Shown here piece by piece: positions 3 to 44,767 of a DNA stretch of 64,000 nt. The DNA comes from Lentisphaerota bacterium. GTDB taxonomy: Bacteria > Verrucomicrobiota > Kiritimatiellia > CAIQIC01 > Lenti-01. A program made the position numbers and the translations under genes. Position 1 is the first letter of the stretch. The number at the start of each line of letters is the position of its first letter. The notes beneath the pieces were generated by a model, which was given only the letters and a program-made list of their open reading frames with translations, was not told the origin of the DNA and made no database searches. The stretch covers positions 31,077 to 95,076 of the forward strand of contig JAAZBB010000015.1 of assembly GCA_012514035.1 (NCBI GenBank), given 5' to 3'.

Positions 3-158
3 ACGCTCGCCGATTTTCACCGCCTGCTGGATTCGTCTTCCGCGCCTGAGCCCGTGAAACAGCGCCTGCGGAAACTGGACGTGTGCTCCTATACCGGACT
101 GGCCGCGCGCATCTGCCGCGATGTTGTGACCGCCGCCGAGCAGGAGGTTCCGGATTGA
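3..158 (+). CDS. 3' end of an unidentified upstream gene (partial; continues left of window)
   Basis: Open frame from the window edge to a TGA at 156-158 that overlaps the purD TTG start (TTGA). The 51-aa tail has no recognisable family. Confidence 0.3.
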   Translation, partial: TLADFHRLLDSSSAPEPVKQRLRKLDVCSYTGLAARICRDVVTAAEQEVPD

Positions 159-1396
159 AGATTGCCGTCATCGGCCGCGGCGGGCGGGAACACGCCCTCG
201 CCTGGAAGCTGGCGCAAAGCGCCGGAACCGGCAACGTGTACTGCTTGCCCGGCAACGGCGGGACCCCGAACAACCGCCCCGTCGCCGAACACGATTATCC
301 GGCCATCCGCGCATTTTGCGCGGCCGAGGGCGTCGAACTTGTCGTCGTGGGGCCCGAGGCCCCGCTGGCCGGCGGCATCGTGGACGCGCTGGGAGGCGGG
401 CGCTTCCGGATTTTCGGTCCGTCGCACGCGGCGGCCCGTCTGGAGGCATCCAAGACGTGGGCCAAGCAGTTCATGCTGCGCCACGGCATCGCCACCGCCG
501 TTGGCGCTTTTTTTTCGTCTCCGCGCGCCGCGAGCCCGCACGTCCGCGCTCAGCCGGGCGGCATGGTGGTCAAGTACAGCGGTCTCGCCGCCGGCAAGGG
601 TGTATTCATCTGCAGCACCCCCGGCGCCGCGCTTGACGCCTTGAAGAAAATCGAAGCCCGCCACGGCGCGGACGCCCCCGTCGTGGTCGAGGAATTGCTG
701 GAAGGTCCCGAGGTCTCCGTCATGGGTCTCACCGACGGCCGGACCATCCAGTTGCTTCCGCCGTCGCGCGACCACAAGCGCCTGCTCGACGGGGACCGCG
801 GCCCCAACACCGGCGGCATGGGGGCCTACACACCCGTGCCCGACGTGGACGCGGCCACCATGGCGGAAATCCACCGGACCATCATCGCCCCTACGCTCGC
901 GGGGCTGGCCAAGGACGGTATCGAGTACCGCGGCTTCCTGTATTTCGGCCTGATGCTGACTGCCGCGGGGCCGAAGCTGCTGGAGTACAACGCGCGGCTG
1001 GGCGATCCGGAAACCGAGGTGCTGCTGCCCGCGCTTGACGGCGATCTGCTGGCGCCGATTCTGGCCTGCTTCGACGGTACGCTGGAGAAGCACCCTTTGG
1101 CCGCCAGACCCGGCGCGGTTCTCGATGTCGTGCTCGCGGCCGGCGGCTATCCGGGCGACATCCGCAAGGGCGATCCAATCACCGGAATTGAACAGGCTGA
1201 CGCGCTGGTGTTCCACACGGGCACCGCAATCCAGAACGGCCAGCTCGTCACCTCCGGCGGGCGCGTGCTGAACGTGGTCGCCCACGGCGCCGACCTCGAA
1301 TCTGCACGCCGCAAGGTCTATGCCGCGTGCGGGAAAATCCATTTTGAAGGCATGCAGTATCGCACCGACATCGGGCAGGGGAGGGCGTCGGCGTGA
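155..1396 (+). CDS. purD: phosphoribosylamine--glycine ligase
   Basis: Translation LKIAVIGRGGREHALAWKLAQS... has the ATP-grasp PurD N-terminus. Start inferred as TTG 155 inside the longer track ORF 83..1396. The stop overlaps the purN start. Confidence 0.88.
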   Translation: MKIAVIGRGGREHALAWKLAQSAGTGNVYCLPGNGGTPNNRPVAEHDYPAIRAFCAAEGVELVVVGPEAPLAGGIVDALGGGRFRIFGPSHAAARLEASKTWAKQFMLRHGIATAVGAFFSSPRAASPHVRAQPGGMVVKYSGLAAGKGVFICSTPGAALDALKKIEARHGADAPVVVEELLEGPEVSVMGLTDGRTIQLLPPSRDHKRLLDGDRGPNTGGMGAYTPVPDVDAATMAEIHRTIIAPTLAGLAKDGIEYRGFLYFGLMLTAAGPKLLEYNARLGDPETEVLLPALDGDLLAPILACFDGTLEKHPLAARPGAVLDVVLAAGGYPGDIRKGDPITGIEQADALVFHTGTAIQNGQLVTSGGRVLNVVAHGADLESARRKVYAACGKIHFEGMQYRTDIGQGRASA

Positions 1397-2007
1397 TTCC
1401 GCGCATCGCCATCCTGATATCCGGCCGCGGCAGCAACATGGTCGCGCTGGCCGAAAGCGTGTGTAGCGGGGTGCTGGCCGGGTGCTGCGAAATCGCGGCT
1501 GTGATCTCGAGCCGCCCCGGCGTTCCGGGGCTTGCCAAGGCGCAGGAACTGGGCCTGCCGATCGTCGCGCTCGACGCCCGCGCCTTGGGCAAGGAAGCCT
1601 ATGACGCCGCCTTGCTGCTGGCCCTGGAACAGGCCCGCGCCGACGTGGTTGTGTTGGCCGGATACCTGCGCATTGTTTCGCCGCGGGTGGTCGCAAAATA
1701 CCGCGGCCGGATTTTGAACATCCACCCGGCCGACACGAAGCTCCACCAAGGACTCCACGGCTACGAGTGGGCCTTCGCCAACGAATTGGCTGCGACGAAA
1801 ATCACCGTCCATCTCGTGGACGAAGGCCTCGACACCGGCCCCGTCCTCGCGCAGCGCGAGGTGGATCTCCGCGGCACAGGCATCCTCGAAGAAGTCGAGC
1901 GCCGCGGCCTCGCCGTCGAACACCGGCTTTATCCCGAAGCCTTGAAAACCTTTTTAACTACGAATTACCCGAATTTCGCGAATGGAACCCCATCCTGTGA
2001 ATCCTGA
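1393..2007 (+). CDS. purN: phosphoribosylglycinamide formyltransferase
   Basis: IAILISGRGSNM...HPADTKLHQGLHGYEWA is the PurN family. GTG start overlaps the purD stop (GTGA). The last ~17 codons are encoded by the CGAATT/ATCCTG repeat element. Confidence 0.85.
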   Translation: MIPRIAILISGRGSNMVALAESVCSGVLAGCCEIAAVISSRPGVPGLAKAQELGLPIVALDARALGKEAYDAALLLALEQARADVVVLAGYLRIVSPRVVAKYRGRILNIHPADTKLHQGLHGYEWAFANELAATKITVHLVDEGLDTGPVLAQREVDLRGTGILEEVERRGLAVEHRLYPEALKTFLTTNYPNFANGTPSCES

Positions 2008-2042
2008 ACCATCCTGTAATCCTGTCTAAAAAAAATATAATT

Positions 2043-3476
2043 ATGTGTGGAATCCTGGGCATCATCGGACACGACGACATCGCCGGCACGCTGCTGGAGG
2101 GCCTGACAGCGATCCAGCACCGCGGCCAGGACGCCGCCGGCATTGTCACCTTCAACCACCGCTTTCACCTGCACAAGGCCGACGGGCTCGTCAGCCAGGC
2201 CTTCAAAAAGGTGGACCTGGCGCGGTTTTCCGGCCGGATCGGGCTGGGTCACGTGCGCTACGCCACGCAGGGCTCGACCGACGTGCTCGATGCGCAGCCG
2301 ACGGTGGTGATGTATCCCTTCGGCCTTGCGATGGTCCACAACGGCAACGTTGTCAACTTCAGCCAGCTCAAGCAGACGCTCTGCGAGGATGCCCACCGTC
2401 TGCTGGACACATCCAACGACGTGGCCCTGATCCTCTACGCCCTCGCTGCCGCGCTTGAAACCAAGAATCTGAAAGCTCTGACTCCCGACGCCATTTTCGA
2501 TTCGGTGCAGGCGGTGCAGGACAAGGTGCAGGGCGCGTATTCGGCGCTGACGATCATCGCTGGCCACGGTCTGCTGGCCTTCACCGATCCCCACGGCATC
2601 CGGCCGCTGGTGCTCGGCCGCAAGTACACCGACCGCGGCATGGTCTACGCCTTTGCCTCGGAAACCGACTGTTTCGATTATCTCGGCTTCGAGCTGATGC
2701 GCGACCTGCGGCCCGGCGAGGCCGTGCTGATCGACACCGCCGGCAAGGTCCACAGCCGGATCTGCCGCGCTGGACCGCAGGCCTTCTGCGTGTTCGAGTA
2801 CATCTACTTTGCGCGCGAGGATTCGGTGATCAACGGACGGCTGGTGGCCAGCGAACGCGTGTGCCTCGGCCGGCAGCTCGCCGAGCAGGTCCGCAAGGCG
2901 GGGCTCCAGCCCGACATTGTGATTGATGTGCCCGCGTCGGCCTATTTCTTCGCCTCCGGAATGGCAGAGGCGCTGGGCGTGCCTTACCGCCGCGGGCTCG
3001 CCAAGAACAACCACATCGGCCGCAGCTTCATCGTGCCGAACCAGGCGCGCCGCGAAAAAATCGTGCGCCAGAAGCTCAACCCGCTCAAGGATGTTGTGCG
3101 TGGCCGAAAGGTGGCGGTTGTGGACGACTCGATCGTGCGCGGCACGACCTCGAAGCACATCGTCAAGCTTCTGCGCGAGAGCGGCGCCGCCGAAATCTAC
3201 TTCGTTTCCGCGGCGCCGCCGATCACGTGCCCCTGCATCTACGGCATCGACATGTCCGTCAAACGGGAGATCATCGCCGCCCATTACGATCCCAGGCAGA
3301 TCGCCCGCTATCTCGAAGCCGACGCCGTCATCTACCAGTCGCTCGACGACCTGCGCGCGCGCTACTGCGATCTGCCCTGCTGCTATGCCTGCTTTTCGGG
3401 CGAGTATCCCACCGGCGCATCGGAGGAAGTCCTCAAGCAATTCGAACAGGAGAAGGAATGCTCCGCCCGGATCTAG
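2043..3476 (+). CDS. purF: amidophosphoribosyltransferase
   Basis: MCGILGIIGHDD... with Ntn-hydrolase Cys2 and a PRTase domain (VVDDSIVRGTT). Confidence 0.95.
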   Translation: MCGILGIIGHDDIAGTLLEGLTAIQHRGQDAAGIVTFNHRFHLHKADGLVSQAFKKVDLARFSGRIGLGHVRYATQGSTDVLDAQPTVVMYPFGLAMVHNGNVVNFSQLKQTLCEDAHRLLDTSNDVALILYALAAALETKNLKALTPDAIFDSVQAVQDKVQGAYSALTIIAGHGLLAFTDPHGIRPLVLGRKYTDRGMVYAFASETDCFDYLGFELMRDLRPGEAVLIDTAGKVHSRICRAGPQAFCVFEYIYFAREDSVINGRLVASERVCLGRQLAEQVRKAGLQPDIVIDVPASAYFFASGMAEALGVPYRRGLAKNNHIGRSFIVPNQARREKIVRQKLNPLKDVVRGRKVAVVDDSIVRGTTSKHIVKLLRESGAAEIYFVSAAPPITCPCIYGIDMSVKREIIAAHYDPRQIARYLEADAVIYQSLDDLRARYCDLPCCYACFSGEYPTGASEEVLKQFEQEKECSARI

Positions 3477-5329
3477 AACACATCGCCGTCCTCGATTTCG
3501 GCGGGCAGTACGCGCACCTGATCGCGAACCGCGTGCGCGGGCTGGGCGTCTACTGCACCGTGCTGCCGCCCGAGAATTTTCGGCCGGGCGCCGATCCGCG
3601 CCTCGCCGGCCTGATCCTCTCCGGCGGCCCGCAGTCGGTGTCCGCCGACCACGTGGCCCTGATGCAGCCCCGGCTCGCGGGCTTCACCAAGCCGATCCTC
3701 GGGATTTGCTTCGGCCACCAGTTGCTCGCCAAACTGTTCGGCGGCGGCCTCGCCCGCGGCCGCGAACGGCAGTACGGTCCCACACCCATCCGCTGCGATC
3801 CGAGGACGCGGCTCTTTCATGAATTGCCGGCGGAGCAATTGGTTTGGATGAGCCACGGCGACCACGTCGCCCAGCTGCCGGACGGCTTCCGTGCCACGGC
3901 GTCAGCCCCCACGTGCGCCATTGCGGCCTACGAGGCGGAAGGCCGCCCCGTCTTCGGCCTGCAGTTCCATCCCGAAGTCGTCCACACCCCCCATGGCAGC
4001 GCCATGCTCAGGAATTTCCTCGAATTGTGCGCCATCCGCACGCCATGGATCCCCGAAAGCATGAAGCAACGCGTCATCGGGCAGACCCGCCAGGCGGCCG
4101 GAGATGCCATGCTCTTCCTGCTGGTCTCCGGCGGCGTGGATTCGCTGGTGACGTTGCAGGTATGCATCGCGGCCGTCGGTGCCGACCGCGTCCGCTCACT
4201 GCACGTGGACACCGGCCTGATGCGCCTCGGCGAGTCGGATGACATCCTGAAATTCCTCGCCGCCGAAGGCTTCCGCAACATCGAAATCGAACGCGCCGAG
4301 CCGGTCTTTTTGCGCGAGCTCGCCGGCGTGGCCGACCCGGAGCAAAAGCGCGCCATCATCGGCCGCCTGTTTGTCGAAGTCCTGCGGAAGAAATTGCAGG
4401 CGCTGAACCTCGGCGACAACTGGAAACTGGTGCAGGGCACGATCTATCCCGACACCATCGAAAGCGGTGGCACCCCGAACGCCGCCAAGATCAAGACTCA
4501 CCACAACCGCGTGCCGGAAATCCAGGCCATGATCGAGCGCGGACTCGTCGTCGAACCCCTGCGCGAACTCTACAAGGACGAGGTCCGCCGGCTCGGCCGC
4601 GAACTCGGCTTGCCGCAGGCCCTGCTCGACCGCCATCCGTTCCCCGGCCCCGGCCTTGGCATCCGCCTGCTCTGCCACGACGGCCAAACGCCAGTGCCCC
4701 CGGAATTCGCCGATCAGCCGCGGCTTGACCACATTTTGCAGTCTGGAGCCGGGACGCCCTCGTCCCGGAAATCTAAATCCACCCGACGAGGGCGTCGGGT
4801 CTCCATTTTGCAAGGCCGCATCCTGCCGGTGAAGAGCGTCGGCGTGCAGGGCGACGAACGCTCCTACCGCCATCCGGCCGTGATCTGGAACCCGGCCGGC
4901 AAACTTCCGGATTGGCCAATGCTCAACACCCTCGCCAACCGGCTCGTCAACGAATTGGCCGACATCAACCGCGTCGTGCTCTGCCTCGACGACCTGACCC
5001 GCGAGCACTTCGAGCTGCGCAAAATGTTCGTCACCCGCGAAGGACTTGATCGGTTGCGCCGGGTGGACGACCTCCTGCACAGTTGCATCGCGCACATCCC
5101 GGAAATCTGGCAGGCGCCGGTCATATCGCTGCCGCTGTTCGACCGGCAGGGCAACCAGGCTTTCGTGCTGCGTCCGGTCTGCTCGAAGGATGCCATGACG
5201 GCCGACGTGTATCCCATCGCTTTCGATTTGCTGGCCGAGCTGGCTGAAAAAGTCCGCGCCGTGCCTGGCGCCGGGCACCTCTTCTACGACCTGACCACCA
5301 AACCGCCGGGGACCATCGAATGGGAATGA
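3458..5329 (+). CDS. guaA: GMP synthase (glutamine-hydrolysing), long form with duplicated C-terminal dimerisation-like region
   Basis: Class I GATase (GICFGHQLL, HPEV), PP-loop SGGVDS, C-terminal KPPGTIEWE. ATG 3458 overlaps the purF 3' end by 19 nt. 623 aa against a typical ~520. Confidence 0.88.
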   Translation: MLRPDLEHIAVLDFGGQYAHLIANRVRGLGVYCTVLPPENFRPGADPRLAGLILSGGPQSVSADHVALMQPRLAGFTKPILGICFGHQLLAKLFGGGLARGRERQYGPTPIRCDPRTRLFHELPAEQLVWMSHGDHVAQLPDGFRATASAPTCAIAAYEAEGRPVFGLQFHPEVVHTPHGSAMLRNFLELCAIRTPWIPESMKQRVIGQTRQAAGDAMLFLLVSGGVDSLVTLQVCIAAVGADRVRSLHVDTGLMRLGESDDILKFLAAEGFRNIEIERAEPVFLRELAGVADPEQKRAIIGRLFVEVLRKKLQALNLGDNWKLVQGTIYPDTIESGGTPNAAKIKTHHNRVPEIQAMIERGLVVEPLRELYKDEVRRLGRELGLPQALLDRHPFPGPGLGIRLLCHDGQTPVPPEFADQPRLDHILQSGAGTPSSRKSKSTRRGRRVSILQGRILPVKSVGVQGDERSYRHPAVIWNPAGKLPDWPMLNTLANRLVNELADINRVVLCLDDLTREHFELRKMFVTREGLDRLRRVDDLLHSCIAHIPEIWQAPVISLPLFDRQGNQAFVLRPVCSKDAMTADVYPIAFDLLAELAEKVRAVPGAGHLFYDLTTKPPGTIEWE

Positions 5330-6663
5330 AGTTTCAAATCCGAAATGCCTGCTGGCTCGGCGACGACGCCTGGTTCCACCACGGCACAATTTCCATCGCG
5401 AACGGTCGCATCATGAAGCTGGAGAGCGACTTTGCCAGCGACACGCCATCCGCCGGCGAATTCATTGTGCCGGGGCTGATCGATGCCCACGTCCACCTGC
5501 GCGAGCCGGGGCAACCCTACAAGGAAGGCATCGCCAACGGGACGCTCGCCGCGCTCAAGGGCGGCGTGACCACCGTGCTCAACATGCCCAACAACGTGCC
5601 GCCGACCGCCTCCCTCGCGCGGCTCGAAGCCAAGCGCGCGCTGTTCGCCCAAAAATCGCGCGTCAACTACGGCCTGTTTTTGCAGGCCCGCATCGGCGGC
5701 CCGCGCGCGCCGGAGAGTGCCGCCGGCGTCAAGATCTACATGGCCAAATCGTCCGCCCTGGCCGCGGTCCGCGACCCCGCCGCTCTCGCCCAGATCTTCC
5801 GCCTTCAGAACCGCGTGGTCGTCCACGCCGAGGACGAGCGGGAGTTTTCCACAGGGTGGAAAAAAAGTTTCCACAGGGTGGAAAAAACGGGCGAAATTTT
5901 CCACAGTGTGGAAAAAAGTTTTCCACAGTGTGGAAAACTTCCCCATCACCTGCGCCGGCCGCGGGCGGCGGTGGTTGCGGCCTTGCAGAGCATCGCCACG
6001 GCCTGGCGGCGGGTGCCACCGAAAGAGCGGCCGCGGCTGGTCATCGCCCATTGCAGCACCGTCGAGGAAATCGACTGGGTGCGGAAGATGAAGCGGCAAG
6101 GCCACGACGTTTGGGCCGAAACCTGCCCGCACTATTTCCTGTTCACCGAACAGGATGATCGCGCGCGCGGCCCGGCATTGCAGGTGAATCCGCCGCTGCG
6201 GACCGAAGAAGACCGCGCGGCGGTTTTTGCGGCGGTGCAAGACGGCGGCATTGATTTCATCTCGACCGATCACGCGCCGCATTTGCCGAAGGAAAAGGCG
6301 GCGGACTCGCCGCCGTCGGGCATCGCGGGCCTGGAATGGTTCGGGCCGGTTTTGCTGACGCTGACCATGCGCGGGGAAATCTCGTGGCAGCGCTACCTAA
6401 AGCTGGCCGGCCAAAAGGCCGCGCAGTGCTACGGGATCGAAGGCCGCGGGCTGGTGCGCGAAGGCGCTTGGGCCGATCTGGCGATCGTGGCGAACAAGCC
6501 GCCGGCGGCGGCCCAGGAAAAAATCGTGACCCGTGCAGCGGTTCACCCCTATCCGCAGTTCGAATTCGCCGTCGGCATTCGGGCTACGCTGGTCAACGGA
6601 CGGCTGGCATGGACGGATGGGCGCGTGCGACCCGGCGTACACGGCAGGGAGGTGTATGGGTGA
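5320..6663 (+). CDS. pyrC: dihydroorotase (amidohydrolase superfamily)
   Basis: DAHVHLREPG HxH motif, VHAEDE, TCPHYF, STDHAPH. Sits in pyrimidine gene context. Carries an in-frame AT-rich tandem repeat at 5845-5938. Confidence 0.8.
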   Translation: MGMKFQIRNACWLGDDAWFHHGTISIANGRIMKLESDFASDTPSAGEFIVPGLIDAHVHLREPGQPYKEGIANGTLAALKGGVTTVLNMPNNVPPTASLARLEAKRALFAQKSRVNYGLFLQARIGGPRAPESAAGVKIYMAKSSALAAVRDPAALAQIFRLQNRVVVHAEDEREFSTGWKKSFHRVEKTGEIFHSVEKSFPQCGKLPHHLRRPRAAVVAALQSIATAWRRVPPKERPRLVIAHCSTVEEIDWVRKMKRQGHDVWAETCPHYFLFTEQDDRARGPALQVNPPLRTEEDRAAVFAAVQDGGIDFISTDHAPHLPKEKAADSPPSGIAGLEWFGPVLLTLTMRGEISWQRYLKLAGQKAAQCYGIEGRGLVREGAWADLAIVANKPPAAAQEKIVTRAAVHPYPQFEFAVGIRATLVNGRLAWTDGRVRPGVHGREVYG

Positions 6664-7280
6664 AGACCGACACGCGGCAATTTGTTCAGTTTCTCGTGGA
6701 CAGCGGCTGCCTGAAGTTTGGCGACTTCCAGCTCAAGTCCGGCGACCGTTCGCCGTTCTTCGTCAATCTCGGTCAGGCCGACAGCGGGGCCAAGCTGGAC
6801 GTACTCGGCCGTGCGCTGGCCGCGGCGGCGGCCGCGGCGTTTCCGCAGGCGACGCTGCTGTTCGGGCCGGCCTATAAGGGCATTGCGCTGGCGGTGGCCA
6901 CGGCGGCCGCGGCGTGGCGGCACCACAACCGCGATTTCCGGTTTTTCTACGACCGCAAGGAGGCCAAGACGCACGGTGAGCGCGGGCTGTTCATCGGGCA
7001 TCTGCCCCAGCCCGGCGAGGCGGTGGTGTTGGTGGACGACGTGCTGAGCGACGGCGGTACCAAGGTGGCGGCCATGGCGGCGATCGAAGCCGCGTTCCAG
7101 ACCCGCCCCGTCGGCATCGTGGTGGCCGTAGACCGGCGCCGGCGCGCCACGCCGCTGCCCACAGGCCTGCCTCCCGTGGCGGCGGTCGTTACGCTGCCCG
7201 ACCTGTGCGACTACCTCGCCGAGACCGGCGACGCCGTCCGCCTGAACGCCATGCAAAAATTTTACGAAGGAGAAAAGTGA
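6660..7280 (+). CDS. pyrE: orotate phosphoribosyltransferase
   Basis: FVQFLVDSGCLKFGDFQLKSGDRSPFFVN...VLVDDVLSDGGT PRTase motif. Start inferred as GTG 6660 overlapping the pyrC stop. Confidence 0.82.
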   Translation: MKTDTRQFVQFLVDSGCLKFGDFQLKSGDRSPFFVNLGQADSGAKLDVLGRALAAAAAAAFPQATLLFGPAYKGIALAVATAAAAWRHHNRDFRFFYDRKEAKTHGERGLFIGHLPQPGEAVVLVDDVLSDGGTKVAAMAAIEAAFQTRPVGIVVAVDRRRRATPLPTGLPPVAAVVTLPDLCDYLAETGDAVRLNAMQKFYEGEK

Positions 7281-8032
7281 TGGCCAAGCAATACAAAATC
7301 ATTCCTGCGCTCGACACGGCCGACCTCGGCGCGGCGCTGCGGCTGGTGTGCCGCGTGGCGGGGCGCGAATCCGTCTACGGTTTCAAGCTGGGCTTCGCGC
7401 TGGGGCTGGGCCATGGCCTGCCCGAGACCGTCCGGCGCATTCGCGAGTGGACCGACAAGCCCCTGATCTACGACCACCAGAAGGCGGCCACCGACATTCC
7501 AGACACGGGTGCGCTTTTCGGCGACGTGATGAAAACGGCCGGCATCAACGAGGTGATCCTGTTTCCGCATACGGGCCCGCGCACGCTCGCGGCGTGGACG
7601 CAGGCGCTGCAGGAACGGGATCTCAAGGTCATTGTCGGCGCGGTGATGACGCATCCGGCCTATCTGGTATCGGAAGGCGGGTTCATCGCCGACGCGGCCG
7701 CGGCGGCGATCTGCAAGCAAGCGGCGGGATTGGGTGTAGCGGCGTTCGTGGTGCCGCTGACCAAGCCGGAAGTCGTGGCCAAATTGGCGCAGGAGGTGCC
7801 CTTCACGGTCCAGCAGGAATTCTACTCGCCGGGCTTCGGCGCGCAGAAAGGCGACCCGGCGCGGTTTCCAATGCTGGCCAGGCATTACCTGATCATGGGC
7901 CGGTCGCTGCTTGCCGCCGCGGACCCGGCGAAGGAACTGGCCAACACCGAAAAACAACTGGGAATAGGAGAGGCGACAGGATCCACAGGATGGACAGGGA
8001 TAAAAGCAGGATCGAAATCCTGTACATCCTGA
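7280..8032 (+). CDS. pyrF: orotidine 5'-phosphate decarboxylase
   Basis: IIPALDTADL...LIYDHQKAATDIPDTG (D-x-K-x-x-D-I-P-x-T motif). ATG overlaps the pyrE stop. C-terminal tail is encoded by the CAGGAT/ATCCTG repeat block. Confidence 0.75.
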   Translation: MAKQYKIIPALDTADLGAALRLVCRVAGRESVYGFKLGFALGLGHGLPETVRRIREWTDKPLIYDHQKAATDIPDTGALFGDVMKTAGINEVILFPHTGPRTLAAWTQALQERDLKVIVGAVMTHPAYLVSEGGFIADAAAAAICKQAAGLGVAAFVVPLTKPEVVAKLAQEVPFTVQQEFYSPGFGAQKGDPARFPMLARHYLIMGRSLLAAADPAKELANTEKQLGIGEATGSTGWTGIKAGSKSCTS

Positions 8033-8060
8033 TCATCCTGCAATCCTGTCTAGAACGAAT

Positions 8061-8996
8061 ATGAAAAAAGACCTGATCTCGATTGACGACCTGCGGCTGG
8101 AGCAGATTCTGAACTATCTCGACCTCGCGGCGCGGGTGGCGGCGATTCCGGACGCGGAAAAGTTCCGTTTCCTGCCGGGGCGGATTCTGGCGACGCTGTT
8201 CTTCGAGCCCAGCACGCGCACACGGCTGAGCTTTGAATCGGCCATGACCCGGCTCGGGGGACGGGTCATCGGGTTTTCGGAGGCGGCGGGCTCCTCGACG
8301 GCCAAGGGCGAATCGTTCTCCGACACGATCCGGACAGTGGAGCAGTATGCCGATATCATCGCAGTGCGGCACCCGAAGGAGGGCACAGCGCGGCGGGCGG
8401 CCGAGATCAGCCGCCTGCCGATCCTCAACGCCGGCGACGGCGCGAACCAGCACCCGACCCAGACGCTGCTGGACCTCTACACGATACGCAAGTTCTTCGG
8501 CCAGGTGGACGGCCTGCGGATCGCATTGGTGGGGGATTTGAAATATTCGCGCACGATCCATTCGCTGTGCCGGGCGCTGCTGATGTTCGACGGGGTGGCC
8601 ATGACCCTGGTGTCGCCCGAGAGCTTGAAACTGCCCGGCTACCTGCTGAAGGCGGCCAAAGGAACAACGGCCACCTTCCGCGAGACCAGCAGCCTGGAGG
8701 AGGCCATCCGCGAAACCGATCTCGTCTACATGACCCGCATTCAGAAGGAGCGTTTTCCCGACGTGGTGGAGTACGAAAAGGTCAAGGATGCCTATGTGCT
8801 GGAGGCCGGAATGCTCGCCGGCGTACCGGCCCGCTTCAAGGTGCTGCATCCGCTGCCGCGGGTGAACGAGATTTCGCCGGACGTGGACGCCACGCCGCAT
8901 GCGGGCTATTTCGAGCAGGCCCGCAACGGCGTGATCATGCGCGAGGCCCTGATCCTCGACTTGCTCGATGCCCGGCCGGCAAGGAGCACGCCATGA
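8061..8996 (+). CDS. pyrB: aspartate carbamoyltransferase catalytic subunit
   Basis: STRTRLSFE, HPTQTLLDLYTI and HPLP motifs. Confidence 0.95.
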   Translation: MKKDLISIDDLRLEQILNYLDLAARVAAIPDAEKFRFLPGRILATLFFEPSTRTRLSFESAMTRLGGRVIGFSEAAGSSTAKGESFSDTIRTVEQYADIIAVRHPKEGTARRAAEISRLPILNAGDGANQHPTQTLLDLYTIRKFFGQVDGLRIALVGDLKYSRTIHSLCRALLMFDGVAMTLVSPESLKLPGYLLKAAKGTTATFRETSSLEEAIRETDLVYMTRIQKERFPDVVEYEKVKDAYVLEAGMLAGVPARFKVLHPLPRVNEISPDVDATPHAGYFEQARNGVIMREALILDLLDARPARSTP

Positions 8997-9472
8997 CTCC
9001 CCAGAGCCAGATTCTCCTGATTCCCAAGATCGAATGCGGCTATGTGATCGACCACATCCCGGCCGGGCTCGGCATCCAGGTCATGGCGCTGATCGGGTGC
9101 CATCCGGAGCTGGAGGCAGCCGTGGTGACGCTGGGCCTGAACTACAAGAGCACGCGGATGGGCCGCAAGGACATGATCAAGCTGCAGACGAAATCCCTGC
9201 CGCCGCGGCTGCTGCAAATGCTGGCGCTGGTGAGCCCTGGCGTGACCATCAAGCGCATCGCCAACTATGAGGTGGTCGAGAAGGTCGTGATCCAGGTGCC
9301 GGAGCTGTTTGACAATCTGGCGCGCTGCATCAACCCCAACTGCATCACCAACGTCGAGCCGCACATCGGGACGCGCTTCAAGCGGCTGGAATCCGGTTCG
9401 CGGCATTTCAAGTGTGCGCACTGCGAGCGCGTCTGCACGCTCGACGAACTGGCGGGGCACCTCAAGGCATGA
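8993..9472 (+). CDS. pyrI: aspartate carbamoyltransferase regulatory subunit
   Basis: MTPQSQILLIPKIECGYVIDHIPAG... and a C-terminal Zn-binding Cys cluster (CINPNCITN...CAHCER). ATGA overlap with pyrB. Confidence 0.9.
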   Translation: MTPQSQILLIPKIECGYVIDHIPAGLGIQVMALIGCHPELEAAVVTLGLNYKSTRMGRKDMIKLQTKSLPPRLLQMLALVSPGVTIKRIANYEVVEKVVIQVPELFDNLARCINPNCITNVEPHIGTRFKRLESGSRHFKCAHCERVCTLDELAGHLKA

Positions 9473-10401
9473 ATCCGCTAGCCGTCCGGATTGCCGGAAT
9501 CGCGCTTGAATCGCCGCTGGTGCTGGCGTCGGGGGTGCTGGGTACGACAGCATCCTCGCTGCGGCGGGTGGCGCAGGCGGGCGCGGGGGCGGTCACGACG
9601 AAGTCGTGCAGCCTTGCGCCGCGCCCGGGGCATCCGGCCCCGTGCATCCTGCCGTGGAAGGGCGGGATGCTCAACGCCGTCGGGCTGTCCAATCCGGGCA
9701 TCGAGGGCGCGCTGGAGGAAATTACCGAATACCGGCGGACCTGCCGGACGCCGCTGTTCGTCTCGATCTTCGCGGGCAGCCCGGCGGAGTTCGGGGAATT
9801 GGCGCAGCGGGTTGCGGCGGCCAAACCGGATTTGATCGAAGTCAACGTGTCCTGCCCGAACGTGGAATCCGAATTCGGCGCGCCCTTCGCCGCGGACCCC
9901 GCCGCCTGCGCGGCGGTGACGCGGGCGGTGAAGGAGAACGCCGGCGGCATTCCGGTTTCCATCAAGCTCGCGTCGCAGTGTGCCTCCATCGCGAAAATGG
10001 CGGAGGTCTGCCAGCGGAGCGGGGCGGACGTGCTCACGGCCATCAACACGGTCGGCCCGGGGATGTGGATTGATCCCGGCGCCGGCCGGCCGGTGCTGTC
10101 GAATCTTGTCGGCGGCGTTTCCGGAACGGCCATCCTGCCCATCGCGGTGCGGGCGGTCTACGAAATCCGCCGCGCGGTGGATTTGCCGATCATCGGCACG
10201 GGCGGGGTGTCGTGTGCGGCGGATGCGCTGCAACTGATCATGGCCGGGGCGGACGCCGTCGGCCTCGGCAGCGCCATCTACGGCGGCGGAATCGGCTTGT
10301 TCGACGAGATCAATCGAGGATTGGCCGATTTCCTCCAGAGCCGGGGATATCAGTCCCTGCACGAGGTTCATGGAATGGCGCACGAAAAAGGCAAGCCATG
10401 A
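9469..10401 (+). CDS. pyrD: dihydroorotate dehydrogenase catalytic subunit (class 1B)
   Basis: TIM-barrel DHODH motifs (GVLGTT, NTVGPG, IGTGGV). Followed by a pyrK-like gene. ATGA overlap with pyrI. Confidence 0.9.
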   Translation: MNPLAVRIAGIALESPLVLASGVLGTTASSLRRVAQAGAGAVTTKSCSLAPRPGHPAPCILPWKGGMLNAVGLSNPGIEGALEEITEYRRTCRTPLFVSIFAGSPAEFGELAQRVAAAKPDLIEVNVSCPNVESEFGAPFAADPAACAAVTRAVKENAGGIPVSIKLASQCASIAKMAEVCQRSGADVLTAINTVGPGMWIDPGAGRPVLSNLVGGVSGTAILPIAVRAVYEIRRAVDLPIIGTGGVSCAADALQLIMAGADAVGLGSAIYGGGIGLFDEINRGLADFLQSRGYQSLHEVHGMAHEKGKP

Positions 10402-11195
10402 AAAGTTTGGCATTGCCCAGTCATGAAATGCACACGCTGCCGATCGAGGACATCGTCGTCCACCACGAAGGGCTGAAGAGTTACCTGTTCCGCCAGACGT
10501 TCGATATCGAGCCGGGGCAGTTTGTGATGCTGTGGCTGCCGGGCGGGGACGAGAAGCCGTTTTCGGTGTCCGATGTGCGAGACGGGCGGATCGAAATCAC
10601 CGCCCGGGCGGTCGGACCGTTTTCACGCGCGCTGATGGCCTGCAAGGTCGGCGGTTTTCTCGGCTTGCGCGGGCCGTTCGGACGCGGTTTCCGTCCGCGC
10701 GGGCGCGGGCTGATCGTGGGCGGCGGCATAGGCATCGCGCCGCTGCGCTATCTGGTCCACCGGCTGGCGCAGGACGGTATGGAATGCCAAATCGCCCTTG
10801 GCGCGCGCACGGCCCGGGAGTTGATGTTTGCCGCCGACTTTGTACGCCGGGGGGCGCGGCTGGCGACGGATGACGGGAGTTTGGGCGAAAAAGTCATGGT
10901 GCTGGCGCTGGCCGAACGGCTGTGTGCCGCCGAAAAGTTTGACGTGATCTACGGTTGCGGGCCGGAGGTCCTGTTGGTCGGGCTTCATCAGTTGGCGGCG
11001 ACAGTTGGCTGCGACTGCCAGCTTGCGCTGGAACGCCACATGAAGTGCGGGATCGGCATCTGCGGAAGCTGTTGCGTGGACGGCAGCGGCATCTGCATCT
11101 GCCGCGAAGGGCCCGTGCTAGATCGCGCGGAGCTGGACCAGGTGGCGGATTTCGGCCGGCCGCATCGCGACGCCACCGGAGCCCGGAAGAATTGA
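10398..11195 (+). CDS. pyrK: dihydroorotate dehydrogenase electron-transfer subunit
   Basis: FAD/NAD-binding fold plus a C-terminal 2Fe-2S Cys cluster (CGIGICGSCCVDGSGICICREGP). ATGA overlap with pyrD. Confidence 0.85.
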   Translation: MKSLALPSHEMHTLPIEDIVVHHEGLKSYLFRQTFDIEPGQFVMLWLPGGDEKPFSVSDVRDGRIEITARAVGPFSRALMACKVGGFLGLRGPFGRGFRPRGRGLIVGGGIGIAPLRYLVHRLAQDGMECQIALGARTARELMFAADFVRRGARLATDDGSLGEKVMVLALAERLCAAEKFDVIYGCGPEVLLVGLHQLAATVGCDCQLALERHMKCGIGICGSCCVDGSGICICREGPVLDRAELDQVADFGRPHRDATGARKN

Positions 11196-12123: not shown

Positions 12124-12828
12124 TCAGCCGTCGAGGCGGAAGGGGGAGAAGCGAGTGCGGGTGTCGTAGGGATCGGACTGTTCGGCGCGCTTGAGGCGGT
12201 GCACGATCCAGTAGGTCAGCGGAGTCGCCAGGACTTCATAAGCGGTCTTGAGCAGGAAGTTCCAGCAGGCGACCCGGACCACGAGTTGGACCGGCCAGAC
12301 GCCGCCGAAGGCAAGGACGGTGAAGAGGAGCGAATCCAGGCCTTCGCCGGCGATGGTGCTGCCGATGGTACGCATCCAGAGATGGCGGCCGGTCATCCAG
12401 ACCTTCATCTTGGCCATGACCCAGGCATTCAGAAACGAGCCGCACCAGAAGGCAACGAGACTGCCGAACACGACCCGCGGAGTTTGAAGAAGAATAGCGG
12501 CAAAGGCGTCCTGCATCTCCCAGCCGGGGGCCGGGGGCAGCAGCGCAACCAGCGAAAAAGCGGCTGCCGCGAAGAAGTTCAGGGCAAACCCCAGCCAGAT
12601 GACGCGTCGGGCCTGGGCGTATCCGTACACTTCAACCAGGATGTCGCCGAAAATGTAGGAGACCGGAAACAGCAGGTTGCCGCCATCCATCGTGATGAAC
12701 GGCAACCCGGGAAGAGTCAGGGGCTTGATGGCGCTGACGTTGGAAACGACCAGCACGGTGCAGAACACCGCGCTGATCGGTCCCAGCCAGCGCCGGGCGG
12801 AAACGGGGAAGGATTCCCCGGAGGGCAT
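12124..12828 (-). CDS. yhhQ: queuosine precursor transporter (YhhQ/Vut_1 family)
   Basis: FPVSYIFGDILVEVYG signature in a polytopic membrane protein. Confidence 0.78.
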   Translation of the reverse strand: MPSGESFPVSARRWLGPISAVFCTVLVVSNVSAIKPLTLPGLPFITMDGGNLLFPVSYIFGDILVEVYGYAQARRVIWLGFALNFFAAAAFSLVALLPPAPGWEMQDAFAAILLQTPRVVFGSLVAFWCGSFLNAWVMAKMKVWMTGRHLWMRTIGSTIAGEGLDSLLFTVLAFGGVWPVQLVVRVACWNFLLKTAYEVLATPLTYWIVHRLKRAEQSDPYDTRTRFSPFRLDG

Positions 12829-13712
12829 TATTTCCCGAACGGATTGATGTTTTTCAGCGCGCCGCCGACGGCGTCGCCGACGGCCTTCCCGGCATCCACC
12901 GCGCCGCCGACGACAGCCTTGCCCGCGTCGGTTGCGCCGCCAACGACGGCCTTCCCGGCATCCACGGCCCCTTCGCCGACGGCCAGGGCGCCTTCGCCGA
13001 CGGCCTTGCCGGCATCGCCGATCAGGTTGCCCGCACCGGCAATGGCGGTGCCGGCGGCTCCGGCGACGGCATTGAGGATTTCACGGATGGCCTCGGGAAT
13101 GCTGACGCCTTCCTTTTCCTTGCCCAGATCCGTCAGGGTAATGGGGGGCAGGGGAATGGGAATGGCCCCGCCGCCGGTCAGGGCCGCCGCTCCGGTGATG
13201 GAGAAGTTCATCTTGCTGCCGGTGATGGAGAGTTTTTCAATGACGACCTTCTTGCCGGGCTTTTCATCTTTGGGCGGCTCTGCCTTGGCTTCGCCTTCTT
13301 CTTCAGGTTTCTCTTCCTTGCCGGCCGAGAGCTGGTCGATCAAGGCGCCGAGATTGCTGTTGAGCAGGCCCTTTTCATAGGTCAGTTCAAGGCCTTCGAT
13401 GGTGATTTCCCGGATGACCATGGTGTCTGAAAGCAGGGTGGAGTTGTCGATATCCACCCGGACCGACCCGAGGTCAAACAGGCCCGGGGTGTTGAAGCCC
13501 TCGGGATTGCCGATGTGGAGGCCGCTGAGGGCGGCTTTGCCGCGCAGGAGAGAAATGTCGGCGTTGGCCAGGGTGGCCTCCACGCCGAGGGCGCCGGGTG
13601 CGGCGGCGTTGAAGCCCTTCAGGATCATTTTGTCCAGGGACAATTCCAGGACGACGAACAGAACGGCCAGGACGACGAGGACGCCAACCAGGATCTTCAA
13701 CAGCGTTTTCAT
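12828..13712 (-). CDS. membrane-anchored hypothetical protein with Gly/Ala-rich C-terminal repeats (AsmA-like?)
   Basis: Start set at MKTLLKILVGVLVVLAVLF (transmembrane anchor, AAGGAA ribosome-binding site 8 nt upstream). About five 11-aa DAGKAVxGGAx repeats at the C-terminus, encoded by 33-bp tandem DNA repeats. Confidence 0.5.
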   Translation of the reverse strand: MKTLLKILVGVLVVLAVLFVVLELSLDKMILKGFNAAAPGALGVEATLANADISLLRGKAALSGLHIGNPEGFNTPGLFDLGSVRVDIDNSTLLSDTMVIREITIEGLELTYEKGLLNSNLGALIDQLSAGKEEKPEEEGEAKAEPPKDEKPGKKVVIEKLSITGSKMNFSITGAAALTGGGAIPIPLPPITLTDLGKEKEGVSIPEAIREILNAVAGAAGTAIAGAGNLIGDAGKAVGEGALAVGEGAVDAGKAVVGGATDAGKAVVGGAVDAGKAVGDAVGGALKNINPFGK

Positions 13713-13892
13713 GGGCTCGATTCCTTGGATACCGCCGGATTTCACCTGGGCGCCGGGTACGGGGCCTGCAGGAATCCAGCGCCATAAACATAGCGCGGCG
13801 GACGGTGGCAATTCCAGCAAATTTCCGCAAACACTTGCCTGGCGCCAGGGGGGCGGGTTGCTTCTGCACGCGGGCCGGAGCCGGAGGAATGC

Positions 13893-17141: not shown

Positions 17142-17927
17142 TCAGCACTCGCCGAATTCGCTGGGCCGGTCGGGATGGGTGGGCAGGACGCGGATGCGGT
17201 CGAGGCCGGCGGCGGCCAGGCGGTTGCGGACGATCTGCATGGCCAGCTCGAGGGTGTTGCACTCGCGGCTGAGATGGGCCAGGAAGACTTGCTGGAGGGT
17301 CTCGCCGGCGATTTCAGTCAAGAGCATCGCGGCGGTTTCGTTGGAGAGATGTCCCTGGCGGCCACGGATCCGCTTTTTGAGGGCCCAGGGCCGGAAGGAA
17401 TTCTGCAGGAGGGTTTCATCGTGGTTGGCCTCCAGCACCAGGAGCTGGCAGCCGCGCAGGCGCTCGCGGGTCACCTGGGTGGGGATGCCGAGGTCGGTGG
17501 CCACGCCCAGGCGGGAGGTGCCGCAGGTCAGGACGAATCCGACGGGATCGTAGGCGTCGTGAGGCAGGGGGAAGGGCAGGATTTCGATGTCGCCGATGGC
17601 GAAGCGCGAGCCGGAACTGAAAAGGTTCCAGGGCAGATCCTGGGCGTTCCGGATGGCGAGAGCGGTATCGCGGTTGGCATACAGGCCCAGACCGAGCCGC
17701 TTGTGAAGCTGGAGCAAGCCGGCGATGTGATCGGCATGCTCGTGCGAGATGCAGATGGCGCGCAGCTTGGCGGGATCGAGGCCGGCCGCGGCCATCCGGC
17801 GCAGGGTTTCCCGCGCGGACAGCCCGGCGTCGATGAGGAGTGCCGTGGTCGGGCTTTCCACATGGATGCAATTGCCGCTGCTGCCGGAGGCGAGCACGCA
17901 AACGCGGAGTTGGGTGGCAGGGGGCAT
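17142..17927 (-). CDS. MBL-fold metallo-hydrolase
   Basis: HEHADH metal-binding motif. Start set at MPPATQLRVCVLASGSSGNC. Confidence 0.75.
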   Translation of the reverse strand: MPPATQLRVCVLASGSSGNCIHVESPTTALLIDAGLSARETLRRMAAAGLDPAKLRAICISHEHADHIAGLLQLHKRLGLGLYANRDTALAIRNAQDLPWNLFSSGSRFAIGDIEILPFPLPHDAYDPVGFVLTCGTSRLGVATDLGIPTQVTRERLRGCQLLVLEANHDETLLQNSFRPWALKKRIRGRQGHLSNETAAMLLTEIAGETLQQVFLAHLSRECNTLELAMQIVRNRLAAAGLDRIRVLPTHPDRPSEFGEC

Positions 17928-17991
17928 GGGGGCTTCGGAAACAGAATATTCAATATCCAACATTCAATGTCCAATGTCCAGGCGGGGACGG

Positions 17992-18864: not shown

Positions 18865-18987
18865 TGAGGGGTATCCTTGTGCAACGGGTTTGGGGGGCAT
18901 TATAGCGGTTGGGATCGGCACGCAAACCTTTTTCGCCCGGGACCGTCCCCAGGAATAAAAGATGAAGCGCAGCGGAAATAAGGTAGA

Positions 18988-28812: not shown

Positions 28813-28838
28813 AATTCAGGCCGGCGGGTCGCGGCGAA

Positions 28839-42571: not shown

Positions 42572-43387
42572 ATGAAACAAAGCACGAAAGCCCCGGCCAA
42601 GCACGTCAGCCGCACGGTCCAGTCGCCTCGGTTGCTCGGCAGCAAAAGCGACATGCCCCGGATGTTGCTGGTCGACGTTTCCAGGCCCATGCGCCGGCTT
42701 CTGGTCAAAATGCTGAAGAAATCGTCGCCCGACATTGTCGTGGCCGCAGCCGGTTCCGTAGCCGAGGCCGTGCGTATCATCGATGCACTGAGGCCCCAGA
42801 CCATCCTGCTGAGCCTGGACCTTCCGGACGGCAGCGGGTTGGAAATCCTGCGCCACGCCATGGCGTTGGACCCCTATTGCATGGTCGTCGTCCTGACGGG
42901 CCGTACGGATGCGGAAACCCGGCTGGAGTGCTTCGAGGAAGGCGCGGATTTCGTGTTCGACAAATCGGCCTCTTTTGAGCGCGCCATCGAAACGGCGGGA
43001 CAGGCTTCGCGCCGGCAGTTGTTCAGAATTCCGCGTCAGCCGATCTCGCGACAATTCATCAGCGAGGATTTCGTGTTGGCGAACAAATCGGGGTTGCATG
43101 TTTTGCCCGCGGCCCGGCTGGTGAAGCTGGCCAGCGGGTACCATGCGGCCATCGAGATTGCCTATGGTGACCAGAAAGCCAATGCCAAGGCCATGATGGA
43201 AGTCATGGCCCTCGGCGCCGAATGCGGCGCCCGTATAACCGTGACGGCTGCGGGCCAGGATGCGGACCAGGCGCTGGCGGGAATCCGCAGCCTCGTCGCG
43301 AAAAACTTTCATGACGAGGCTTGTTCGCGCCGCCGCCGAAACAGGGCAAGCCGGAGCCCCCGGCCGAATAATGGCCCGCCGAAATAG
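42572..43387 (+). CDS. response-regulator receiver (REC) domain fused to HPr phosphocarrier domain
   Basis: N-terminal REC (LLVDVS..., LLSLDLPDGSG, VVLTGRTD, FVFDKS). C-terminal HPr fold (GLHVLPAARLVKLASGYHAAIEI...MEVMALGAECGARITVTAAG) with His15 retained and the Ser46 position occupied by Ala. Confidence 0.75.
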   Translation: MKQSTKAPAKHVSRTVQSPRLLGSKSDMPRMLLVDVSRPMRRLLVKMLKKSSPDIVVAAAGSVAEAVRIIDALRPQTILLSLDLPDGSGLEILRHAMALDPYCMVVVLTGRTDAETRLECFEEGADFVFDKSASFERAIETAGQASRRQLFRIPRQPISRQFISEDFVLANKSGLHVLPAARLVKLASGYHAAIEIAYGDQKANAKAMMEVMALGAECGARITVTAAGQDADQALAGIRSLVAKNFHDEACSRRRRNRASRSPRPNNGPPK

Positions 43388-43421
43388 GAAGTCCGGCCCA
43401 TCTCTATTGAGTTTTTCAAAA

Positions 43422-43532
43422 GTAGGTTGCGGTTATGGTTCGGGCGGGCCCCGCCACCTTGTGTGGTGGGGGAGCTAACTTTGCCTCCCATGGCGCAAGG
43501 CCATGGGGGGGGCGAAACAGCCAAGTTCATCA
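43422..43532. repeat. interspersed repeat module A (solo copy), two GC-rich hairpins
   Basis: About 95% identical to 21380-21483. The hairpins are CCCC(A/G)CCACC-ttgtg-TGGTGGGGG and CCCATGGC-gcaag-GCCATGGG. Confidence 0.85.
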
Positions 43533-43609
43533 ATTTGGATGCGTCCGAGAAACTCGGCTGATCAAAATGGACTGGATTCGAAAGGCGCGCGGCGGCTAGA
43601 CTGCGCGCC

Positions 43610-44767
43610 ATGGACCCGGTTCGGGCAAAACGGATTGCAGTGGATGCGCGGTGGGTGTTCCGTGAATTGAGCGGGATCGGCCGCTACACACTCGAACTGT
43701 TGCGGGAACTGGGGGAAATCGGCGGGGCATTCCATTTCCTGGTGCTGGTGCGCGACGCGGAGCGGCGGGCATTCATCGCGCGGGAGGCCGGGCTGGCGGA
43801 CCGGGCGAATTTCGAGTTTGCGGAGCTGCCCCATGGCGTGTTTTCGCCGCTGGGCCAGTTCGCCGCAGCGCGACTGCTGCGCGAACGCATGGTGGACATC
43901 TACCACTCGACGAATTTCATGATTCCGCTACCGGCCTTTCCCCGGCACCGGCCGCATGCGATCCGCTGCGTCTGCAACATCCACGATTTGATTCCCCTGG
44001 TGCATCCGGAATTCACGCCGCGCGCGCTGAAGACGCGGTTTTACCCGGTGTACAAGGCGCTGATGCATCAAATTGCGCGGCGGGTGGATACGGTGGTGAC
44101 GGGCAGTGAATCGGCCCGTCGTGACATTGTCCGCCTGCTGGGGATTCCCGGGGAACGCATCGTGGTGGCGCCGGATGGCGTGGCGGCGCACTATGGGCCC
44201 GCCGGCGAGAAGCCGTCGGCCCGGGGCGGGCCGAAGACCGTGCTCTATGTGGGCCGGAGCGATCCTTACAAGAACCTGCCCGGGCTGGTTGCGGTCTTTG
44301 CACGGCTGGTGCGCGAGACCGGGATGGACGTCCGCCTGCGCATCGTGGGCTCTCCGGACGCGCGCTATCCGGAGGCCGGGGAGGCGGCGCGGCGGCTAGG
44401 GGTGGCCGACCGGGTGGAATGGTCGGGTTATCTCGACGAGGCCGGACTGCTGAAGGCTTATCAGGAGGCCGATGTGCTGGCGCTGTTGTCGCGCTACGAG
44501 GGATTCGGCCTGCCGGTGCTGGAGGCCATGGCCTGCGGCACACCCGTGGTTTGTTCCGATGCGGCCAGCCTGCCGGAAGTGGTCGGCGGCGCGGCTTGGC
44601 TGGTCAATCCGGATGACCAGGCGGAGGCCGTGGCGGCCCTGCGCGAGGTGCTGACCAATCCGGCGGCGGCGGAGCGCTTGCGGACCGCCGGACTGGAACG
44701 GGCGCGGCAATTCACCTGGCAGGCGGCGGCGGCGGCCGTTCTGCGCGTGTATGGCGGGGCACCATGA
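43610..44767 (+). CDS. glycosyltransferase family 4
   Basis: EGFGLPVLEAMACGTPVVCSDAASLPEVVG EX7E motif. Confidence 0.85.
   Translation: MDPVRAKRIAVDARWVFRELSGIGRYTLELLRELGEIGGAFHFLVLVRDAERRAFIAREAGLADRANFEFAELPHGVFSPLGQFAAARLLRERMVDIYHSTNFMIPLPAFPRHRPHAIRCVCNIHDLIPLVHPEFTPRALKTRFYPVYKALMHQIARRVDTVVTGSESARRDIVRLLGIPGERIVVAPDGVAAHYGPAGEKPSARGGPKTVLYVGRSDPYKNLPGLVAVFARLVRETGMDVRLRIVGSPDARYPEAGEAARRLGVADRVEWSGYLDEAGLLKAYQEADVLALLSRYEGFGLPVLEAMACGTPVVCSDAASLPEVVGGAAWLVNPDDQAEAVAALREVLTNPAAAERLRTAGLERARQFTWQAAAAAVLRVYGGAP

Follow-up and report, generated by a model that had tools for sequence, protein, structure and literature searches.

Repetitive extragenic palindromic (REP) elements and bacterial interspersed mosaic elements (BIMEs) reportedly act as binding sites for proteins and as determinants of unequal mRNA stability inside operons. 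Here we describe an array of repeats that works like REP/BIME arrays and like the Rickettsia palindromic elements (RPEs), and is a member of neither class. The array lies at positions 5845-5938 within pyrC, the dihydroorotase gene, in a stretch of 64,000 nucleotides of a Lentisphaerota bacterium of the Kiritimatiellia (contig JAAZBB010000015.1, hereafter the window). On balance, we favor the reading that it is one copy, fixed and in frame, from a lineage-specific family of palindromic repeats in phased arrays, found in a clade of Kiritimatiellia, and that it would likely serve as a protein-binding and hairpin-forming boundary of expression. Searches of the literature aimed at the motif and at repeats in Kiritimatiellota gave only primers and unrelated papers, and no account of the family; within the literature searched, the dispersed family of phased arrays appears to be undescribed.

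The likeness to REP/BIME elements, for which general context is available (PMC10969869), lies first in the short, imperfect and dispersed palindromes, mostly extragenic, often placed just downstream of genes, and able to form hairpins (20-40 nt in REP/BIME elements, from a 19-bp dyad unit here). It extends to the organization of the arrays, which combine two types of units at fixed spacings. Yet, the arms of our units are AT-rich (TTTTCCAY) whereas REP stems are GC-rich, and the sequences are unrelated. No GTAG-type head and no REP-associated tyrosine transposase (RAYT, a Y1 transposase) was seen with the arrays, among approximately 25 annotated neighbors. Their density is apparently of tens, not hundreds, per genome, and essential genes can contain copies that are translated in frame.

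RPEs are in-frame palindromic repeats in unrelated metabolic genes, which stay functional and to which they add a tolerated peptide (PMC10969869). Our arrays share with them the in-frame insertion at a tolerated surface position, here in pyrC (17 genomes) and in tilS (L144; such L-numbers designate the loci or contigs that were compared with the window). However, RPEs are single elements of ~150 bp with a peptide conserved in one frame, whereas the arrays are made of phased 19-bp units read in three frames, vary in the number of units, are mostly intergenic, and occur in another host phylum. The peptide is not conserved as such, and the resemblance is functional, not one of family homology. 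Transposable elements of the miniature inverted-repeat type (MITEs), such as ERIC, Correia, BOX and QMITE, are small non-autonomous repeats, sometimes intragenic with in-frame read-through (PMC10969869). The arrays resemble them by their presence/absence polymorphism and by occasional intragenic in-frame copies, but they are modular tandem structures without terminal inverted repeats beyond the units, without target-site duplication when a filled and an empty site are compared, and for which no parent insertion sequence was found.

The array also recalls clusters of DnaA boxes, whose stringent consensus is TTWTNCACA. It is dense in such 9-mers, and a palindrome of convergent boxes is found upstream of dnaA in other taxa. 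Unlike the known clusters (boxes of the dnaA promoter and oriC, datA, Bacillus), the arrays are strictly dyad-symmetric and phased at 22/31 bp, and many of their units lack a consensus box. Moreover, the pyrC array is neither at a switch of strand polarity nor beside dnaA, and the family occupies many loci, with polymorphism between relatives.

The palindromic array in pyrC

The host gene (5320..6663, + strand) encodes a dihydroorotase of 447 aa, a pyrC-type amidohydrolase by its Amidohydro_1/DHOase score. The array within it (5845..5938; neither the array nor its units are assigned a strand) consists of four TTTCCAC-N3-GTGGAAA palindromes with cores at 5846-5862, 5868-5884, 5898-5914 and 5920-5936, and with centers (AGG, AGG, AGT and AGT, in this order) spaced by 22, 30 and 22 bp. 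A first-pass annotation had described tandem units of ~22 bp. The four palindromes stand, but they are not strict tandem 22-mers: they form two doublets of 22-bp spacing, set 30 bp apart (architecture A-22-A-30-A-22-A). The array has ~38% GC, against ~0.64-0.65 in the gene outside the block. Unit 1 (5845..5863, TTTTCCACAGGGTGGAAAA) is translated as F-S-T-G-W-K-K in frame 0 of the dyad, and unit 2 (5867..5885, GTTTCCACAGGGTGGAAAA) as F-H-R-V-E-K in frame 2. Unit 3 (5897..5915) is the perfect 19-bp dyad TTTTCCACAGTGTGGAAAA, i.e. two convergent TTTTCCACA 9-mers, translated as F-H-S-V-E-K, and unit 4 (5919..5937) is the same perfect dyad translated in frame 1, as F-P-Q-C-G-K. The in-frame translation proposed in the first-pass annotation is borne out, since the open reading frame (ORF) at 5320-6663 (+) gives ...HAEDEREFSTGWKKSFHRVEKTGEIFHSVEKSFPQCGKLPHHLRR... 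across the block.

Residues ~176-207 are encoded by the array; they follow the HAEDE strand and precede the HHLRRPRAAV helix. The flanking catalytic motifs were described as intact, and indeed the metal-site or catalytic-type residues (H57, H59, K138, H169-A-E-D172, H244 and D317-H318) are invariant in 38 homologues. In an AlphaFold model of PyrC (overall predicted local distance difference test score, pLDDT, of 83.9; predicted template modelling score, pTM, of 0.87), residues 179-205 of the insert have pLDDT <50 and make the main stretch of low confidence. This otherwise confident model supports the earlier suggestion that the block probably occupies a tolerant surface loop.

Unrelated types of repeats are also inserted in frame at the pyrC loop of some relatives. 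In L012, L013 and L019 a 50-bp GC-rich hairpin element (ggacgacacggaggtcgtcc ctccatggag ggtcgggctccgtcccgacc, with peptide GRHGGRPSMEGRAPSRPD) is in frame beside the array, as is a REPIN-like element (GTAGGGCGA...TCGCCCTAC) in L018 (10560-10640). The guaA gene of the window (3458-5329) has an in-frame insert of ~20 aa (..AGTPSSRKSKSTRRGRRVSILQ..), which is lineage-specific and missing from L005 and L007. In L006, guaA (7920-10010) has ~70 extra residues in the same loop, including SNIQCPISN, which is the translation of the 'tccaatatccaat' family of repeats.

All 17 close relatives (17/17) have between 1 and 6 units at the same pyrC loop, between HAEDE and HHxRRP, always in frame. The relevant length variation among PyrC homologues at 55-72% identity (419-506 aa) is all in this loop, and the distance between the HAEDE and HH codons takes values of 55, 85, 94, 106, 118, 124 or 169 nt in the 17 loci of the clade, which belong to one frame class. 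The commonest state is a doublet spaced by 22 bp (55 nt), and the window has this doublet duplicated. We found no unit in the pyrC genes of outgroups (>60 loci, <=49% identity). The first-pass annotation had proposed a private insertion, to be given up for a native linker if orthologues carried a similar segment. The private character is contradicted by the 17 occupied relatives, which formally counts for the linker, whereas the absence of the segment from outgroups agrees with an insertion. Together, these comparisons show a doublet that was fixed in a predicted disordered surface loop of the dihydroorotase in the ancestor of the clade, and that has been in frame ever since.

The inserted peptides FSTxWKK, FHxVEK and FPQCGK are the three reading frames of a single dyad, TTTTCCACAGTGTGGAAAA. 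In 36 units taken from 16 genomes, 5 of 504 arm positions depart from TTTCCAC/GTGGAAA (99.0% identity), whereas the shared four-fold degenerate sites of pyrC are 68% identical, with a chance level of 49%. Arms are thus far more conserved than synonymous sites, so selection acts on the DNA. At the level of sequence comparison, this shows constraint on the DNA motif and not on the peptide.

These data bear on whether the segment is a native peptide linker or an artefact of assembly, both of which we rejected as highly improbable. The presence of a similar segment in orthologues would suit a linker, but its copy number varies, it is read in three frames, identical arrays occur in non-coding DNA, the arms are more conserved than synonymous sites, the pLDDT is low, and outgroups lack it. 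As to an artefact, the first-pass annotation had named misassembly as a case that would undo its claim. The identical protein and DNA block recurs across numerous independent assemblies (59 blocks in the index), and the identical array in four loci from four different samples; misassembly is therefore excluded.

A dispersed family of phased arrays

Beyond 5845-5938, the motif was not found in the 64 kb window with up to two mismatches. In shuffled windows 0.01 matches are expected, and none of 100 shuffles reaches 8. There being no second copy, the repeat family is not recognizable from the window alone. The first-pass annotation had pointed to possible further copies. They are missing from the rest of the window, but there are many in metagenome contigs, where a scan for TTTTCCACNNNGTGGAAAA matched at least 119 stretches. 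Among the 80 loci listed by the scan, only 4 have a homologue of pyrC.

In 78 high-GC loci, the family counts 241 units grouped in 95 arrays, with 1-9 units per array. Its unit is a 19-bp dyad with consensus TTTTCCAY-R-S-Y-RTGGAAAA. Among the first 63 arrays, units are spaced by 22 bp (40 times) or 30/31 bp (46 times). There are two types of units, A (C..G) and B (T..G), which make an oriented module A-22-B-31-B with a period of ~83 bp, repeated up to three times in tandem. The spacers are fixed in length and variable in sequence, so all half-sites would be on one face of the helix. Arrays are mostly intergenic and found in every arrangement of genes; counts of these arrangements are approximate, because a gene caller based only on GC at third codon positions (GC3) gave antisense artefacts, and a later caller used a criterion of higher GC at first than at second positions (GC1>GC2), validated on L001. 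The neighbors are functionally unrelated: metallo-beta-lactamase (MBL) hydrolase, kinase, ABC permease, MatE, HsdM, DsbD, TrpA, RadC and others. A second in-frame array is in a TilS-type gene of L144, where it is translated as ...VFHSVENFFPQRGKKAESFSTRWKNGGKFFHCVEKS.... We rejected an operator specific to a pathway, i.e. of a purine or pyrimidine regulator, because arrays flank unrelated genes and also lie between convergent ones.

Two orthologous sites are filled in relatives and empty in the window. The parA-like and MBL genes are separated by a spacer (17913..17991, no strand) that is empty in the window; L134 has there a block of ~125 bp with 3 units, and L098 an array of 2 units. The ParA-like, ArgS and phosphatase proteins of L134 are 83-90% identical to those of the window. 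Similarly, the region upstream of the glycosyltransferase gene at 43610 (43387..43610, no strand) is empty, and the L182 orthologue has a 4-unit array directly upstream. Comparison of these orthologous sites shows that arrays come and go as blocks among close relatives, a presence/absence polymorphism of the kind known from MITEs. Arrays being dispersed, with filled and empty sites, the pyrC block would therefore be a fixed in-frame copy of a dispersed family. The interpretation of the block as a palindromic element of REP/MITE type in the first-pass annotation was essentially right, since the same element occurs elsewhere in related genomes.

Other repeats occur in the vicinity of units. The parA-like/MBL spacer of the window has a 'ATTCAATATCCAAC' / 'ggatattgaatgttggatattgaa' repeat (17935-17975), which L134 has conserved at the orthologous place and which adjoins arrays in L104 too. 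Dyad units flank a conserved GC-rich core of ~110 bp (…gccgagtrccgagcycaagccg…gcgaggtctatagcg…) in L106 (826-1210), L142 (10968-11121), L151 (105-296) and L165 (~2290-2400), which suggests a composite element with units at its ends. In L019, at 7 kb downstream of pyrC, a single perfect dyad (17690-17706) precedes the start of a peroxiredoxin-thioredoxin operon by ~45 bp.

What might such arrays do? They could be a cooperative binding platform for a predicted dimeric DNA-binding protein. As RNA or single-stranded DNA they would make a very stable composite hairpin: the pyrC array is predicted to fold as a single strand into one composite hairpin of -56.6 kcal/mol (z = -8.65). A search of Rfam 15 found no family at the gathering score and gave only sub-threshold matches of hairpin type, and a known RNA family was rejected on this basis.

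Alternatively, the array might be a neutral passenger, a selfish or slippage-prone repeat without a role in the cell that is tolerated by the loop, in which case the step in synonymous composition described below would have an unrelated cause. The ease with which the pyrC loop takes the GC-rich hairpin and REPIN-like elements in relatives, and guaA other repeats in frame, fits a passenger, as do the coming and going of arrays elsewhere and the unrelated functions of their neighbors. Since the genes of the operon overlap, a tolerant loop would also be one of the few places where an insertion is survivable. We nevertheless find this explanation unlikely. It does not account for arms that are almost identical when synonymous sites have diverged, for the occupancy of the pyrC site in all 17 genomes of the clade when other sites are polymorphic, or for spacers that keep their length and vary in sequence. 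Furthermore, in pyrC, and a second time in tilS, the step in composition falls at the array.

DnaA boxes and replication polarity

The pyrC gene is within a string of 18 co-directional genes of ~20.7 kb (window 155-11195, extended by L208 1-21242), in the order infA-guaB-purM-purL-purQ-purCE-purB-purD-purN-purF-guaA-pyrC-pyrE-pyrF-pyrB-pyrI-pyrD-pyrK. In this supraoperon, which is preceded by a divergent mutS and conserved across the relatives of the clade, most neighboring genes overlap by their stop and start codons. Its upstream part in the window (purD, purN, purF, guaA and the 5' part of pyrC; 155..5838, + strand) has a coding-strand GC skew at four-fold degenerate sites (four-fold skew) of -0.12 to -0.33. 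The downstream part (the 3' part of pyrC, pyrE, pyrF, pyrB, pyrI, pyrD and pyrK; 5950..11195, + strand) has values of +0.10 to +0.29.

The half-site TTTTCCACA fits TTWTNCACA. Within its 94 bp, the array has 5 perfect 9-mers and 3 with one mismatch, and these are the only matches to the DnaA-box consensus in the 21-kb operon. Allowing for at most one mismatch, the window has 24 matches against 10.6 expected, and 8 of them are inside the array. In pyrC arrays, the palindromes with exact TTTCCAC/GTGGAAA arms each hold at least one perfect 9-mer, and an identical palindrome is directly upstream of dnaA in two other lineages. DnaA regulates nucleotide genes, and intragenic boxes bound by it can block RNA polymerase in E. 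coli. There is thus a minor, though appreciable, possibility that the array binds DnaA, as a titration site of datA or DnaA-box-cluster type or as a transcriptional roadblock that would link the supply of pyrimidines to the status of the initiator.

However, over the 241 units of the family, perfect half-sites make up just 42% on the left and 36% on the right. The fraction of units with at least one perfect box is 0.61, when 0.63 is expected by independence, so there is no sign of selection for consensus boxes, and we rejected selection for at least one perfect box per unit across the family. The common CAT...GTG units and the GCC/GGC centers break the positions that matter most for DnaA, and a monomeric binder of boxes needs no strict dyad symmetry. 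In L129, whose contig has both an array and dnaA, the boxes upstream of dnaA are TTATTCACA/TTGTTCACA and the array is 2 kb away, between other genes. Finally, the matches close to dnaA come from other taxa, with GC ~0.57.

The latter deserve description of their own. In L094, L136, L152 and L154 a single palindrome is found 108 bp upstream of dnaA, among canonical TTATCCACA boxes, and in L185 a single one is ~35 bp upstream. These palindromes of other taxa are likely to be genuine pairs of boxes of the dnaA promoter or of oriC.

The cluster of DnaA-box-like 9-mers also raises the question of an oriC embedded in coding sequence. The local minimum of cumulative GC skew, at 5-6 kb, is at the array; the top-strand four-fold skew of the window is negative in every segment to its left (-0.12 to -0.33), and the next 15 genes to its right have +0.10 to +0.56 in either orientation. 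Yet we give this idea almost no credence. Genes further left, beyond the operon, which were reached via guaB in three genomes, have positive top-strand skew on both strands: +0.46 for mutS in this genome, +0.25 to +0.80 for nine genes of L212, and +0.35 to +0.68 for minus-strand genes of L211. The skew is positive on both flanks of the operon, and therefore there is no switch of replichore and the region is in a single one; on the grounds of this common polarity a replication origin is refuted. In addition, the left part of the operon is never negative in L005-L007, neither dnaA nor dnaN occurs in the 64 kb window or its flanks, no AT-rich unwinding element flanks the array, and some relatives keep one unit alone. 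Other arrays do not mark polarity switches either: most have the same top-strand sign on both sides, and a general role of arrays as switches of strand polarity was rejected. The case calls for caution, as here a dense cluster of DnaA-box-like sequences at a local minimum of GC skew is no origin.

A step in synonymous composition at the array

If not replication polarity, what changes at the array is the synonymous composition of the operon. From infA to the 5' part of pyrC, 11/12 segments of this genome (15.7 kb) have a coding-strand four-fold skew of -0.12 to -0.38, the exception being guaB. The same genes in relatives have ~0 to +0.13, except guaB (+0.32 to +0.38) and infA (-0.15). Pooled values in this genome are -0.20 upstream of the array and +0.21 downstream, where individual values go from +0.11 to +0.28. 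Within pyrC itself, the skew goes from -0.32 to +0.29, a difference of +0.61 to be compared with a null within-gene difference of -0.07 +/- 0.18 (n=52 genes). The difference ranges from +0.06 to +0.42 in 15 relatives and is thus positive in 16/16 genomes of the clade that were tested; in outgroups it averages ~+0.035 (at third positions). The step is a uniform exchange of C for G in all eight four-fold codon families, with unchanged fractions of A and T and unchanged choices at two-fold codons. Other arrays show a similar trend. The skew is -0.05 upstream and +0.57 downstream of the tilS array of L144, it rises across arrays in 7/8 co-directional gene pairs, and genes ending at arrays have a median skew of -0.41 against a background of -0.05 (p = 2e-4).

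The genes upstream are those that deviate from the regional norm, so we favor an explanation linked to expression; the same C-ending bias is seen in infA, enolase and pyruvate kinase. The array is inside an ORF of an overlapping infA-gua-pur-pyr operon that leaves no intergenic room, and it stands just where the strong C-ending bias of the upstream purine and guanine genes gives way to the regional norm. This change may be read as a boundary of expression between the purine and the pyrimidine halves of the operon. We infer that the array marks a fall in transcript abundance or ribosome flux.

Several observations weigh against this explanation of the array. The inferred fall itself rests on codon and strand composition only. 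The step is just ~1-1.5 standard deviations of the null in most relatives, and the 16 genomes do not count as independent cases. Baselines specific to each organism confound the contrast between background genes and those that point toward arrays. The tie of C-ending bias to expression, drawn from infA, enolase and pyruvate kinase, is a weak one, as comEC and mutS, two genes of low expression, are C-biased too when strand is ignored. At the DNA level, neither a target-site duplication nor a transposase was seen at the filled site of L134 when compared with the empty site of the window, a single comparison. The density of copies looks low, unlike that of classical REPs: the 64 kb window has a single array, and ~250 kb of clade loci add one further unit. 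Nor do the arrays look like terminators. On the sense strand of the pyrC array, no hairpin is followed by a U-run, the only call being on the minus strand, and the sense-strand terminator score of pyrC arrays is 0 in 9/10 genomes. Among intergenic arrays, a hairpin with a T-run is favored in sense 10 times and in antisense 14 times, i.e. there is no rule of orientation. An intrinsic terminator was rejected on these grounds. The array may still act as an attenuator or a recombination site, as suggested in the first-pass annotation.

A more ambitious possibility is that the arrays are a new type of operon-internal insulator, with phased dyads to which a nucleoid or initiator-like protein, perhaps DnaA, would bind, and that they set the ratio of purine to pyrimidine expression. 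The insulator would work from within an ORF because the supraoperon has no intergenic space. We hold this to be quite unlikely. If true, the ratio might be regulated by the status of replication, and a step in synonymous composition would be visible in the middle of a gene.

The remainder of the window has further features. The stretches at ~26000-39000 and 58000-62000 have GC of 0.51-0.60 against ~0.65, and are probably acquired islands; the first has genes for the synthesis of polysaccharides and a Mutator-family transposase (33653-34522). The window also includes an AT-rich spacer (27292-27730), bordered by the genes of an ABC transporter and a glycosyltransferase. Three short tandem repeats occur in this spacer: CAGGAAAA x3.8 (27338-27368), TGCCTAAAAAA x3.4 (27587-27623) and TTTTCCTG x3.6 (27627-27662), the last being the CAGGAAAA repeat inverted. 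An orphan ATPase of ParA/MinD type (17992-19065, - strand; AAA_31, 200 bits) has an N-terminal extension of ~70 aa and no adjoining parB, and the ORF upstream of its gene (19138-19674) matches no family. Coding tandem repeats of 33 and 21 bp are found at 12878-13021, in a DUF748/AsmA-like gene (12828-13820, minus strand).

Overall, a conserved and phased DNA motif in pyrC represents non-coding information held within the ORF of an essential enzyme over a long evolutionary time, with a protein that tolerates whichever peptide each frame gives. This extends the phenomenon of in-frame palindromic elements from Rickettsia to a lineage of the Planctomycetes-Verrucomicrobia-Chlamydiae (PVC) group, with a very different element of array type. 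The motif TTTTCCAY-RSY-RTGGAAAA, with its phasing of 22/31 bp, provides a defined bait to seek the binding partner. Finally, if the composition step reflects expression, pyrC would harbor a rare within-gene operon boundary, and one that may be detected from sequence alone.

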